DNA from: an uncultured archaeon
GTDB taxonomy: Archaea; Thermoproteota; Bathyarchaeia; Bathyarchaeales; Bathycorpusculaceae
DNA length: 64,000 bases
Reading direction: 5' to 3'
Assembly (NCBI GenBank): GCA_963810275.1
Contig: CAWENF010000002.1
Coordinates: forward strand, 1 to 64,000
The notes beneath the pieces are model-generated. The model made no database searches. It worked only from the letters and a program-made list of their open reading frames with translations, and was not told where the DNA came from. Numbering within the stretch: the first letter of the stretch is position 1; each line of letters begins with the position of its first letter. Positions 60,864-64,000 of the stretch are shown here, in pieces. A program made the translations under genes and the position numbers.

Positions 60864-61088
60864 TTAGCCGTGTTTAGCGATGGCTGCTGTAATCGCCGCT
60901 CCAATTATGAGCATGATTAGAGCTGCACCCAATACAAGAAGCGGAATCTTAAAGACAGCTTCGGAGTGCAACACCGCCGTTGTTGGCAAACCGCCAAGGT
61001 AAGCTACAAGAAAAAACGCTGTGAAAACTGCGCCAACTGCTTCAATTACGTAGAGAAACGTGGTTAAGCGATTTTTGGCCATCTCCAA
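60864..61088 (-). CDS. Small two-TM membrane protein
   Basis: Two hydrophobic helices. Confidence 0.65.
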   Translation of the reverse strand: MEMAKNRLTTFLYVIEAVGAVFTAFFLVAYLGGLPTTAVLHSEAVFKIPLLVLGAALIMLIIGAAITAAIAKHG

Positions 61089-61227
61089 ACTTTGTAACCC
61101 TTCTGCATTATTGGATTTGCAGGTTTTAGTATTTAATATTAACCGTCAAAATAGATCAGGGTACAGTCTGGTTACCACAAGCATAATATACAGTTTACCT
61201 CAAAGTAATTTTGTCGGCGGCGTAACT

Positions 61228-62151
61228 TTGGAGCAAAAAAGTCTTACCCCACTAAAAGTAGGCGTAGCCACAGCAGCAACTGCATATTTCCTTTTCACGC
61301 TTCACGCAATGTTCACGTTAGGCTGGATAGGAGAATGGGAAGGTTTACCGCCACCAATGGACTTCTGGATTTTCATAACTGATATCTCAGCAGGCATTTT
61401 TCTTGTTTTCCGCTTCATTGCAGGCATACTCGCCTTCACAGCCGTAGCTCTATACTTCACAAAAGGCTTATCTCAAAACACACTATACAAGTGGATAAGG
61501 GCAATTCTGGTTTTGGAAGCGCTCTACTGGATTGGCCTTTTACCGTCTGGAATCTGGGGTATCCTTTTTGGGGTAATGCCATACGGAACTTCGTTGCTTA
61601 TAACAACTGGAATACCATGTATGTTCTGCTCAGTAGCCATCCCTATATCCCTCTTCATGATAGCAGCTAAACTTAAACCCGAAAGGCCAGCACCGACAAA
61701 GTTGGTTTGGATTGCAGGCTTATTCTATATAATTGACTTTTGGTTAGTCAACATGGGCACATGGATCAACGTTGCATTCTTTTCAGGTAAAAGCGCAGAT
61801 TACCTTATCATCAACCCAGAGTATCTTTTCAGCTTCATCCTAACCATAGCAGGTTTGCTGTCACTTGCAATCTACACAGGTTATGCTGCAGTAAAATCGA
61901 AATGGCAACTAAAAACATGGCCAGCAGGAGTAATCCTTACCTCGCTTGGATTATATTACCTTTGGAACTATATGGCGTGGATTTTCTTTGGCGGTTGGAA
62001 CGACTGGTACGCATGGTTCCTTGGGCATAACCTTGACCTGTGGTTGCTGACACTTCCGCTGATTGGGTTGCCGCTGCTGTTCCAAAGCCAAAAGCAGCCT
62101 GCCCCAGAAGAACCTCCTTCGCCATTCGGCTCATTTGTAGCCACCGCCTAA
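61228..62151 (+). CDS. Polytopic membrane protein
   Basis: About 8 hydrophobic segments; likely TTG start at 61228. Confidence 0.75.
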   Translation: MEQKSLTPLKVGVATAATAYFLFTLHAMFTLGWIGEWEGLPPPMDFWIFITDISAGIFLVFRFIAGILAFTAVALYFTKGLSQNTLYKWIRAILVLEALYWIGLLPSGIWGILFGVMPYGTSLLITTGIPCMFCSVAIPISLFMIAAKLKPERPAPTKLVWIAGLFYIIDFWLVNMGTWINVAFFSGKSADYLIINPEYLFSFILTIAGLLSLAIYTGYAAVKSKWQLKTWPAGVILTSLGLYYLWNYMAWIFFGGWNDWYAWFLGHNLDLWLLTLPLIGLPLLFQSQKQPAPEEPPSPFGSFVATA

Positions 62152-62240
62152 CCGCACAGTTGTTGTACACGTATGCCTCCGCATGTGATGACCACAAACA
62201 TAAAATTGTCAAACAGGCAAAGATGAAGGCGGTAAACACT

Positions 62241-62738
62241 ATGCCACAGTTTGCATTAAACTCAAACAGGATTGACCCTTACAAGAATTTTAGGTTTCGA
62301 GTGAAATGGGATGGAAAAGTGGTTGCGGGAGTCTCCAAGATGAGTCCACTTAAACGCACCACTGAAGTTATCACACACCGGGAAGGCGGCGATATAAATG
62401 TAGACCGCAAATCCCCCGGCAGAACCACGTTTGCACCTATCGTATTTGAGCGCGGCGTGACGCACGATCCCGAGTTTGAAGCTTGGGCAAACCTCGCTTT
62501 CAACAAAAGCTCGGAGTCGATGTCGCTTAGGAACTTCCGCAAAAATATAATCATCGAGTTGCTAAACGAAGCGGGCGCGGTTGCTATCGTCTATAAGGTT
62601 TACCGATGCTGGGTTAGCGAGTATAGTGCCCTGCCCGAGTTGAATGCAGGCGCAAACGCTGTAGCTATTCAGAGTATAACGATTGAGAATGAGGGTTGGG
62701 AGCGAGATACCTCTGTGGCTGAACCCCAAGAGACTTAG
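62241..62738 (+). CDS. Phage-tail tube protein (T4 gp19 / eCIS Afp1/5-like)
   Basis: DPYKNFRFRVKWDG, REGGD...RKSPGRT, ERGVTHD.EFE.WA, RKNIIIEL.NEAG, YRCWVSEY..LP.L.A.ANAVAI, ENEGWERD. Confidence 0.92.
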   Translation: MPQFALNSNRIDPYKNFRFRVKWDGKVVAGVSKMSPLKRTTEVITHREGGDINVDRKSPGRTTFAPIVFERGVTHDPEFEAWANLAFNKSSESMSLRNFRKNIIIELLNEAGAVAIVYKVYRCWVSEYSALPELNAGANAVAIQSITIENEGWERDTSVAEPQET

Positions 62739-62749
62739 GGGAGACCTAA

Positions 62750-63451
62750 TTGTCGAATCAACCAAACAGCCATAAAGGAACTCTCGTACTTCTATCGACA
62801 ACCGCCAGCAACGCTAACGCCTTAGGCTCCAATACGTACTTTGTGTTCCAGTACAACCCAGAAAAACTCGTGCATACATTCAATCAAAACACGACTGTCC
62901 AAAATGAGCTGCAGGGGGAGTTTTTCAGCTTAAAATTTGACCTTGATAGTGTAGACTTTGACGAAGCAACACAAACCCAAATTACATCGCAGTTTGGGAT
63001 ACACCCTGCACTTGCTTTGCTGGAAGCAATGACGCAACAACAAAAGACAGGCAACCAAACACTTGAGCCCATCATTGTCTTCAACTGGGGCACAAAACGC
63101 TCCGTACCAGTCCACGTTGTAAATATGAACATTGAAGAGCAAAGTTTTGATACTGCGCTCAACCCGACAAGAGCAACAGTTAATCTAACACTAAAAGTTC
63201 TTGAGACTACAGAAGTAAGCGGCAACCCAGAAGCGAAAAAACTTTGTCAAGCGCACCAAACCACCCGAGCATCGCTGGTGGATGTTTACAAGTTGCAGAC
63301 TGGGCAAGGCAGATCCACAGTGGGAGTATCCCAAGGAGTTCCAGGCACTGCTGTTACCTCAGTAGGGAACTTGGCAAGTGTGTCGAACCTAAAAAGCACC
63401 GTATCCAAGGTCGAAACAGTCAAAACTATTAGATCCATTAAACGCCGTTAA
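62750..63451 (+). CDS. CIS tube-initiator-like protein (Afp7/gp48-type)
   Basis: FQYNPEKL, GIHPALALLE, F.WG..R..PV....I.E..FD.ALNP.RA.V.L.L.VL pattern; 11 nt after the tube gene. Confidence 0.75.
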   Translation: MSNQPNSHKGTLVLLSTTASNANALGSNTYFVFQYNPEKLVHTFNQNTTVQNELQGEFFSLKFDLDSVDFDEATQTQITSQFGIHPALALLEAMTQQQKTGNQTLEPIIVFNWGTKRSVPVHVVNMNIEEQSFDTALNPTRATVNLTLKVLETTEVSGNPEAKKLCQAHQTTRASLVDVYKLQTGQGRSTVGVSQGVPGTAVTSVGNLASVSNLKSTVSKVETVKTIRSIKRR

Positions 63452-63539
63452 CCGGCGCTTCTTTTTTGTAGGCACAGTGTGTAGCAACACAGCTTCATTA
63501 TTCTTGTCGGTATTATGTAGCTTAAGGAAGCTAAATTTT

Positions 63540-63662
63540 ATGATTCTAACTGAAGAGCCGCCCCCGAATCCGCCTCCAAACCCAGAGCCAGAACCTCAAC
63601 CGCAGCCTGAACCGCCAAATCCTACCCCAGTAGAGAATAACGAACAAAAGCACCTGGGATAG
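63540..63662 (+). CDS. Possible Pro-rich microprotein
   Basis: MILTEEPPPNPPPNPEPEPQPQPEPPNPTPVENNEQKHLG; low complexity. Confidence 0.35.
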   Translation: MILTEEPPPNPPPNPEPEPQPQPEPPNPTPVENNEQKHLG

Positions 63663-63786
63663 TAGTCTCAAAACGCCGGATTGTTCTCAACAGCTGAACA
63701 TTTTAAGTTAAAAAAACAAAATCTAAACCAATCCCTAACTTTTGAAACTCTTATATACGTCGCCTGATAATCTGATTGTGAGATTC

Positions 63787-64000
63787 ATGGCTGAAGTTTG
63801 TTCAACATGCGGACTCCCAAAAGACCTATGCGTTTGTGGAGAAATCGAAAAAGAGCAACAGCGCATTCGCATACGCCTTGAAACCCGTAAATTCGGAAAA
63901 GCAACCACTATCATAGACGGAATGGACGACAAAAACCAGAACCTGCAAAGCGTCGCCCAGAAACTTAAAACCTATTGTGCATGTGGCGGAACCCATAAAA
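63787..64000 (+). CDS. sui1: Translation initiation factor aIF1/SUI1 (truncated by window end)
   Basis: MAEVCSTCGLPKDLCVCGEIEKEQQRIRIRLETRKFGK.TTIIDG...LKTYCACGGT. Confidence 0.95.
   Translation, partial: MAEVCSTCGLPKDLCVCGEIEKEQQRIRIRLETRKFGKATTIIDGMDDKNQNLQSVAQKLKTYCACGGTHK

Follow-up and report, generated by a model that had tools for sequence, protein, structure and literature searches.

Two adjacent genes of an uncultured archaeon of the Bathyarchaeia encode proteins of the inner tube of contractile injection systems (CIS), in an assembly in which our searches recognised no other part of such a machine. They lie near the end of the window, the whole stretch of 64,000 nucleotides that was analysed, with which a contig of 222,653 bp (C2) begins; the assembly comprises 2.26 Mb in 28 contigs, with a completeness of 92.58% and a contamination of 4.45%. 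Gene A (62241–62738, forward strand) starts with ATG and encodes a gp19/Cis1-type inner tube protein of 165 amino acids. Gene B (62750–63451, forward strand) starts with TTG and encodes a protein of 233 amino acids that resembles Afp7/Cis7-type tube initiators. The two genes form one operon, with a membrane protein gene on the left and the gene for aIF1 on the right.

Gene A encodes a contractile-system inner tube protein of the gp19/TIGR02241 family. It matches Phage_T4_gp19 (PF06841) over positions 1–134 of 134 with an E-value of 1.4e-41 and 141.9 bits, against a cut-off of 28.2. It also matches TIGR02241 (142.4 bits, cut-off 62.4) and the tail tube protein family phrog_4542 (2.8e-21). Among PDB sequences the matches include All3324 (2.9e-13), the AlgoCIS tube (3.4e-11) and Afp5. 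The AlphaFold2 (AF2) model of A has a pLDDT of 74.3, and the best ten Foldseek matches to this model are all tube chains of extracellular CIS (eCIS), thylakoid-anchored CIS (tCIS), AFP or PVC, with E-values from 6e-9 to 3e-7, as expected for the tube-protein fold, a beta-sandwich with a long hairpin. AlgoCIS 7adz_1a and Anabaena 7b5h_AN lead these matches (E 6e-9), followed by Afp5, Afp1 and PVC. A scores below the NCBIfam equivalog cut-offs of both CIS1_fam (58 bits, cut-off 220) and CIS5_fam (56.2 bits, cut-off 260); it is roughly equidistant from the two families, so that a main-tube or adaptor-tube role is not assignable. The open frame around A extends over 62040–62738 (+) in the list of open reading frames (ORFs), and the ATG at 62241 gives the length of 165 amino acids that is found in 14 of 19 ORFs of type A in relatives; the remainder reach up to 190 amino acids through an upstream start codon, apart from one of 153.

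Profile matches and the predicted structure identify B as an Afp7/Cis7-type tube initiator in which a tail appears to have replaced the LysM domain. B matches CIS_tube (PF19266) with an E-value of 1.9e-5 and 24.9 bits, below the cut-off of 27, and this family is present in 32 of 42 clusters of B homologues. A 48-row profile of B retrieved solved tube initiators from PDB, namely 9rce_H (8e-6), All3321 (0.044) and Afp7 (0.051). The AF2 model of B has a pLDDT of 75.6, falling below 50 over residues 191–231. The best nine Foldseek matches to it are the initiators Pvc7, Afp7, Streptomyces Cis7, Alg7, All3321 and those of cyanophage A-1(L), with E-values from 3e-7 to 2e-5, a probability of 1.00 and TM-scores of 0.38–0.47. 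An FQ.NPE motif is invariant over 48 B-type sequences, together with 16 invariant columns. A first-pass annotation of the window, made by reading the sequence, had proposed an intact gp19/Afp-type tube gene followed by a tube-initiator-like gene, and both proposals are borne out by these family, profile and structure matches.

The predicted initiator fold of B occupies residues 1–185 (62750–63304, +), as judged from the PDB profile and from AF2 and Foldseek. Residues 186–233 with the stop codon (63305–63451, +) make up the tail, which lies at the LysM position of Afp7-type proteins. The composition of the tail is V9 S8 T6 G5 R4 K4, with a net charge of +7; it is predicted to be a disordered Ser/Thr/Val/Gly-rich linker with a basic patch at its end, which agrees with the Ser/Thr/Val-rich basic tail, in place of LysM, of the first reading. 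No LysM family of Pfam was matched by B at E-values up to 0.01. The tails of B in relatives differ in sequence and most of them end in Lys-rich patches, and in four genomes an AAA domain is present in place of the tail. In these genomes (G121, G105, G092 and G114; here and below G, C and L numbers denote genomes, contigs and loci) the Cis7-like domain is fused to a single AAA ATPase domain (PF00004, 5e-23) in proteins of 382–391 amino acids, encoded at L035 6508–7656, L037 6508–7662, L046 4762–5937 and L067 4761–5936. The gene for the fusion lies back to back with a sheath gene in two of the four (G121 and G105), and in PADLOC the resemblance of the fused form is to IetA and is confined to its AAA domain. 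A complex prediction for A with residues 1–190 of B (alignments A2 and A1) gave a score of 0.10 and a mark of 0.32, which weighs neither way.

The spacer between A and B is 11 nucleotides. It includes a ribosome-binding-like motif, GGGGAG (62738–62743, +), which we read from the sequence 6–11 nucleotides 5' of the TTG of B and which would be consistent with co-translation of A and B. An AT-rich ATAAAATT at 62200–62207 (+), 34–41 nucleotides 5' of the ATG of A, is a possible archaeal TATA box of the operon; the promoter scan covered the sigma-70 type only. B is followed by a 5-bp GC hairpin, CGCCG-TTAAC-CGGCG (63443–63457), that overlaps its stop codon and continues into CTTCTTTTTT (the whole at 63443–63467, +). 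This is the hairpin and T-tract that had been placed at about 63440–63468, and it is likely to mark the transcript end. Sites of this type are not enriched as a class, with two found against a mean of 2.3 in shuffled sequence, so position is the sole argument for a terminator role.

Both flanks were recognised as the first-pass annotation had described them, and both are taken to lie outside the module. The ORF on the left (61060–62151, +; 363 amino acids) encodes a multi-pass membrane protein with at least five hydrophobic segments, and it matched no Pfam family; its true start is probably further downstream, as its homologues have 305–311 amino acids. The gene on the right, aIF1/SUI1 (63742–64000 in the window, to 64095 on the contig, +; PF01253, E 1.2e-11), is followed on its 3' side by a Zn-ribbon gene and then TFB. 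The gap between B and aIF1 contains an ORF of 61 amino acids (63477–63662, +) whose translation begins with a hydrophobic segment and contains the Pro-rich repeat PPPNPPPNPEPEPQPQPEPPNP. It is probably not a gene; in G096 no ORF of at least 60 amino acids is found at the matching place of the syntenic locus. A search of sequencing runs with positions 62100–63500 listed 12 rows of DNA type, none of them with half of the sampled words, and no RNA row.

The remaining parts of a contractile machine were searched for throughout the assembly. There were no matches to the sheath (PF04984), gp25, baseplate J, the Pvc16_N cap, the VgrG OB domain, eCIS_core or T4_baseplate, with the gp25, baseplate J and VgrG OB searches run to E-values up to 0.1. 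A tblastn search of the assembly with all ORFs of the eCIS contig of a relative, its sheath included, returned only A and B. Hidden Markov models (HMMs) built from the sheaths, caps, tubes and Cis7 proteins of the genus were compared with 24,923 six-frame segments at E-values up to 10 and also found only A and B, with the exception of one CIS7 match at E 0.16 that we took for noise. Integrase families have six matches in the genome and none in the window, and AAA families have 12 matches in the genome, none in the window and none near A or B. The window had already been described as having no sheath, baseplate, spike, AAA or integrase gene; this holds for the families searched, and for sheath, gp25, baseplate J and VgrG it extends to the whole assembly. 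In the two closest relatives (G014 and G096) the sheath gene adjoins a NUDIX gene. Here that NUDIX gene is interior to contig C10 with unrelated genes next to it, which indicates that the sheath is gone from its usual place and not merely unassembled there.

The only virus-like cluster that was found is on the same contig about 80 kb downstream (C2 ~142,200–154,300; L187 6222–18303). It encodes a cement protein, an HK97-type capsid protein (PF05065, 26.9 bits, barely over the cut-off) and a Phage_tube_2 (PF18906) tail tube (1e-11), with a weak match to a tail-assembly chaperone. Families of sheath, baseplate, portal and terminase proteins were not recognised in the cluster, which is possibly a provirus remnant. 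Its presence raises the explanation that A and B supply tube parts in trans to a full eCIS or to this caudovirus-like cluster (C2 ~142–154 kb). The cluster encodes a tube itself, from a different family, and therefore has no use for A and B; none of its genes matched a sheath or baseplate family, and no other CIS gene was found in the assembly. We consider supply in trans scarcely credible. The possibility raised in the first-pass annotation, that an eCIS or prophage elsewhere in the genome provides the other parts, is contradicted by the same results.

The pair was followed through 120 species genomes of the genus; these genomes are related, and counts over them are not independent. Tubes of type A, those of the relatives 74–85% identical to A of this genome, are present in 22 of the 120, this genome and 21 others. 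They form one clade with support of 100/100 and short branches (the long-branch row G023 falls within this clade and is unreliable), and on the tree this clade is closest to tubes that belong to full eCIS loci of the genus. B lies directly 3' of A on the same strand at 20 loci by the ORF filter and in G084 by tblastn, whereas contig ends interrupt the pair in G081. Both genes are intact in all 22 genomes. Across the 21 loci compared, A and B are the only genes common to all, and the pair has at least four different flanking contexts. Only G096 repeats in full the context of the window, which consists of S51 peptidase, membrane protein, A, B, aIF1 and TFB. We considered the upstream membrane protein as a third partner and rejected it, as it adjoins A in only five of 21 loci.

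In a class-wide sample of 301 genomes from 107 genera, B-type proteins occur in two genera only. They are found in five of the 14 sampled genomes of this genus, as well as in the genome described here, and in four of six genomes of a sister genus in the same family. In the sister genus a tube gene precedes the Cis7-like gene, a Lys-rich tail is present in three of four, and a B-like gene is disrupted in one genome. B belongs to a small subfamily, with 42 clusters at 90% identity; a comparison with 1.84 billion representatives gave five matches at E ≤ 1e-30, 62 at E ≤ 1e-10 and 532 at E ≤ 1e-3.

Both genes are under purifying selection. The ratio of non-synonymous to synonymous substitution rates (ω, dN/dS) was calculated by the Nei-Gojobori method for the 36 genome pairs in which dS of A or of B is less than 1. 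For A it is 0.03–0.19 over these pairs. For B it is 0.06–0.25 in 33 of the 36, with most values at 0.12–0.25, 0.415 in one very close pair (dS 0.04) and undefined in two where dS is saturated. Between this genome and its nearest relative, G014, A has a dN of 0.087 and a dS of 1.02, and B has a dN of 0.368 with dS saturated; B evolves several times faster than A.

These values bear on the explanation that A and B no longer have a function and are left over from an eCIS or provirus that has decayed, stop codons not yet having accumulated in them. Decay does occur in the genus: a full eCIS locus of G105 (contig C9, ~40–65 kb) has a tube gene with three stops, gp25 and Cis7 genes each in two pieces and a VgrG gene with one TAG, there are sheath pseudogenes, and the sister genus has the disrupted B-like gene mentioned above. 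A relic would have to remain intact in all 22 genomes with ω far below 1 at dS up to saturation, and to stay together over at least four contexts and two genera. We regard the relic as quite improbable, and the strain-specific, decaying pair that the first-pass annotation had allowed for is not what the genus presents.

The reduced state of the system is shared with most of its relatives. Among the 120 genomes a gp19 tube is present in 53, a sheath in 47, the Pvc16_N cap domain in 42, the VgrG OB domain in 15, gp25 in 13 and baseplate J in eight. At least one of these six CIS families occurs in 79 genomes and any baseplate or spike marker in 17; gp25, baseplate J and VgrG are all missing from 41 of the 53 genomes with a tube and from 35 of the 47 with a sheath. 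A reduced gene set is the usual state in the genus. Full loci do exist, as on a contig of G016 with Cis7-like, VgrG, eCIS_core, sheath, tube and T4_baseplate-like genes. Of the 22 genomes with the pair, 20 have none of gp25, baseplate J and VgrG and no genome has more than one, so the relatives do not carry a dispersed complete eCIS. Two of the genomes, G014 and G084, consist of a single contig and are without gp25, baseplate J, VgrG, eCIS_core and T4_baseplate. The suggestion that the pair is one piece of a dispersed eCIS is thus unsupported for this genome, where there is no other piece, and weakly supported in its relatives.

That weak support comes from the sheath. Most sheaths in the genus are encoded by lone genes for one-domain proteins of 357–365 amino acids, which form one clade (SH-aLRT 96). 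The site of the lone sheath is a syntenic housekeeping region with NUDIX, ABC-transporter, HerA/NurA-like, fasciclin and HIT genes as neighbours, the NUDIX gene lying within 6 kb in 24 of 36 sheath loci examined. Lone sheath loci include L029 11721–12797 (G014) and 28 others among L033 and L088–L119. In some relatives a gene for a protein of 181 amino acids lies by the lone sheath; it belongs to no Pfam or NCBIfam family, and neither this genome nor the sheath locus of G014 or of G096 contains it. The lone sheath clade spans species with differing tube modules or with no tube, and in single-contig G014 the sheath is 0.5 Mb from A and B.

Among the 22 genomes with the pair, 16 have a sheath match and 14 of these have an intact sheath of the lone type. 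The other two combine intact A and B with damaged sheath genes: in G106 the lone sheath remains only as pieces with a stop codon (C14:220248–221312), and in G012 a broken copy of the lone type (C5:34860–35476) is accompanied by an intact sheath of a different type, which lies next to a second tube. Further broken or stop-bearing copies of the lone sheath were seen in G051 (C166), G103 (C11) and G101 (C12). No sheath was found in the remaining six, this genome, G007, G054, G082, G120 and G128, with a sheath protein of the genus also used as query; four of the six are 90–96% complete and G082 is 61% complete. In the sheath-less genome pair G082–G128, ω is 0.078 for A and 0.133 for B. Terminal branches in sheath-bearing and sheath-less genomes have medians of 0.052 and 0.058 for A and of 0.334 and 0.156 for B (G084 and G081 left out), with lengths that depend on the closeness of the nearest sampled relative.

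These data allow an explanation in which the lone sheath, A and B are a dispersed three-gene contractile device with no classical baseplate, and the pair described here is its stranded half, a remnant unable to function by itself, the sheath having been lost recently or lying in the unassembled 7% of the genome. Consistent with such a device, the 14 intact lone-type sheaths that accompany the pair belong to one clade at a syntenic site, and across the genus, with kinship ignored, a sheath match is present in 40 of the 53 tube genomes against seven of the 67 that have no tube. A related tube-then-Cis7 pair occurs in the four genomes with the AAA fusion, back to back with the sheath in G121 and G105, and a Gemmatimonadota contig (L161) carries genes for a sheath, a tube and a Cis7 protein of 380 amino acids consecutively. 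The sheath does not keep to the pair, however. One orthologous sheath accompanies two unrelated modules, an alpha tube with Cis7 and a beta tube with a Pvc16-like cap, and genomes with the A–B module and genomes with the tube–cap module are interleaved on the sheath tree. Outside full loci five genomes have a sheath with no tube at all, the pair occurs with no sheath in six, and sheath pseudogenes are found in genomes with intact A and B. Selection on A and B shows no visible relaxation in the sheath-less genome pair, and no sheath initiator of the gp25 type is present. Taking both sides together, we think a three-gene device fairly unlikely.

The tube–cap module is a second reduced set, present in 12 other species and designated class V among the tube-locus classes I–V, a grouping made here from the feature itself. 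It consists of a beta-clade gp19 tube of 144–153 amino acids followed by a protein of 187–200 amino acids, which in both of the cases tested is a cap protein with Pvc16_N (E ~1e-37), and no baseplate genes are nearby. Examples are L073 5968–7002 and L076 5391–6441, and there are ten more. Pvc16_N proteins of 288–320 amino acids also occur as a stand-alone CIS-derived gene in 15 of the 18 genomes that are positive for the cap and lack a gp19 tube (for example G094:C2:49815–50303, G015:C5:505243–505704 and G123:C5:711412–711894).

A different function was considered in which the pair is a domesticated structural decoy that co-assembles with, and poisons, myovirus-like tails or the eCIS particles of competitors. 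Contractile elements do circulate in the genus, as the 17 genomes with a baseplate or spike marker attest, A is nearest on the tree to the tubes of those full loci, and orphan genes under purifying selection would fit a stand-alone protective role. None of A, B, the lone sheath and the membrane protein had a match in a PADLOC search, so that neither gene of the pair corresponds to a defence model there; the flanks are housekeeping genes and not those of a defence island, and the slow evolution of A is contrary to the expectation for an arms race. We judge the decoy improbable.

The explanation that we favour, with slightly less than even confidence, is that A and B are a functional, exapted tube module that has no baseplate and is independent of the sheath. 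The pair would be an inner-tube module that has outlived the rest of the contractile machine and is kept by selection in one Bathyarchaeota-type family, and to this we give a credence that likewise falls just short of even. The identities of both proteins, their conservation and mobility as a unit, the purifying selection on them and the lack of the remaining parts in this genome and most of its relatives are the observations on which it draws. Since the pair is kept across more than 20 related species though the other parts are missing from the genome, it probably serves a new purpose. Six of the 22 genomes have no sheath and two more have it as a pseudogene while A and B are intact, so the domesticated sheath-less tube, one of the two alternatives offered by the first-pass annotation, fits better than the dispersed eCIS; the role as a filament or conduit that was attached to it is something we infer.

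By homology with the known initiators, B may form a six-fold ring that nucleates the stacking of A hexamers, which would give a hollow, non-contractile tube. Assembly would take place without a baseplate, spike or cap and, in this genome, without a sheath. The flexible basic tail of B may stand in for the contact made by LysM with the baseplate, and could tether or plug the starting end of the tube at an acidic surface, such as a membrane or nucleic acid, or at an ATPase. The AAA fusion at the position of the tail in four genomes suggests that the start of the tube works with, or anchors to, another factor.

Several points weigh against a sheath-independent tube module. With the assembly 92.58% complete, a sheath could sit in the missing part, and very divergent baseplate proteins can escape six-frame Pfam searches. 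The co-occurrence of sheath and tube across the genus would fit a sheath-dependent function. Among the 20 terminal branches of B that were compared, the one leading to this genome is the longest (0.55), which could reflect either relaxed constraint or sparse sampling. Canonical tube assembly needs a baseplate hub. According to work cited in a survey of 2025 (PMC12210884), no particles are produced once a single Pvc gene for the baseplate, the tube or the sheath initiator has been deleted.

A wider form of the sheath-independent module can be offered as a tentative possibility, less than probable on present data. The Bathyarchaeota-type family may have dismantled its CIS and kept separate modules (tube with initiator, tube with cap, lone sheath and stand-alone caps), with the A–B tube acting as a motor-coupled or surface-anchored intracellular conduit or filament, a kind of structure that is not known from any phage-tail-like system. 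The starting ring of such a tube might carry six flexible basic tails or, in the four sister genomes, the AAA+ fusion, and we hold this part to be just as tentative.

To our knowledge, all characterised phage-tail-like machines (myovirus tails, pyocins, eCIS as well as type VI secretion systems, T6SS) depend on a baseplate for the initiation of tube and sheath. If A and B assemble, they would be the smallest self-sufficient unit of tube machinery and an example of archaea re-using structural virus-like genes, which would surprise a specialist. The fusion of the initiator with an AAA+ domain in sister genomes points to a testable link between the base of the tube and an ATPase. Reduced sets of this kind would escape surveys that require complete clusters, for example that of PMC12210884, which, in the part of it available, uses filters on cluster composition.

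The closest known systems are the Afp and PVC eCIS (PDB 6rao, 6j0n and 9qgl), in which the tube fold of Afp1 and Afp5 corresponds to A and the initiator fold of Afp7 and Pvc7 to that predicted for B. Unlike these systems, the present genome is without a sheath, gp25, baseplate J, VgrG, a dedicated ATPase and a cap, and where Afp7 has LysM, B has a tail that is basic and predicted to be disordered. The gene order also differs from that of bacterial eCIS loci, where Cis7 usually adjoins the spike genes; in most of the bacterial loci fetched, Cis7 is followed by genes for proteins of about 95 and 380 amino acids. B adjoins the tube gene and is not beside Cis8, spike or baseplate genes, its neighbours being A, the membrane protein and aIF1. 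The thylakoid-anchored CIS of Anabaena (7b5h) and AlgoCIS (7adz and 7aeb) give the best matches to A, and B is matched by their initiators All3321 and Alg7; each of the two is a complete machine that includes a sheath, a baseplate and a spike, whereas only two parts are present here.

Orphan hcp/vgrG/PAAR islands of bacteria supply parts to a complete T6SS whose genes lie elsewhere in the same cell. They resemble the A–B locus in that genes of a tube family lie away from the main cluster, as described in the part of PMC13098142 that was available, and they differ from it in that this genome has no main system. The haloarchaeal contractile injection system, or archaeal T6SS, likewise represents archaeal use of phage-tail-like machinery; it is a full contractile system with a demonstrated antagonistic function, and the portion of PMC11566945 at hand holds nothing relevant on Bathyarchaeota or orphan modules. 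A one-domain sheath of 321 amino acids from a Bathyarchaeota metagenome-assembled genome has been modelled (PMC9230969), and the lone sheaths of the genus, of 357–365 amino acids, are of that short kind; the sections available of this paper mention no gene context, orphan tube-initiator pairs or missing baseplates. The literature on archaeal and Bathyarchaeota CIS, to the extent available, does not describe orphan tube-initiator pairs or lone sheaths in these archaea, and supplements of surveys may list such loci. Both protein families are known; compared with known systems, the distinguishing features of the A–B module are the loss of all other parts, the adjacency of tube and initiator, the tail in the place of LysM and the vertical retention of the pair in housekeeping regions.

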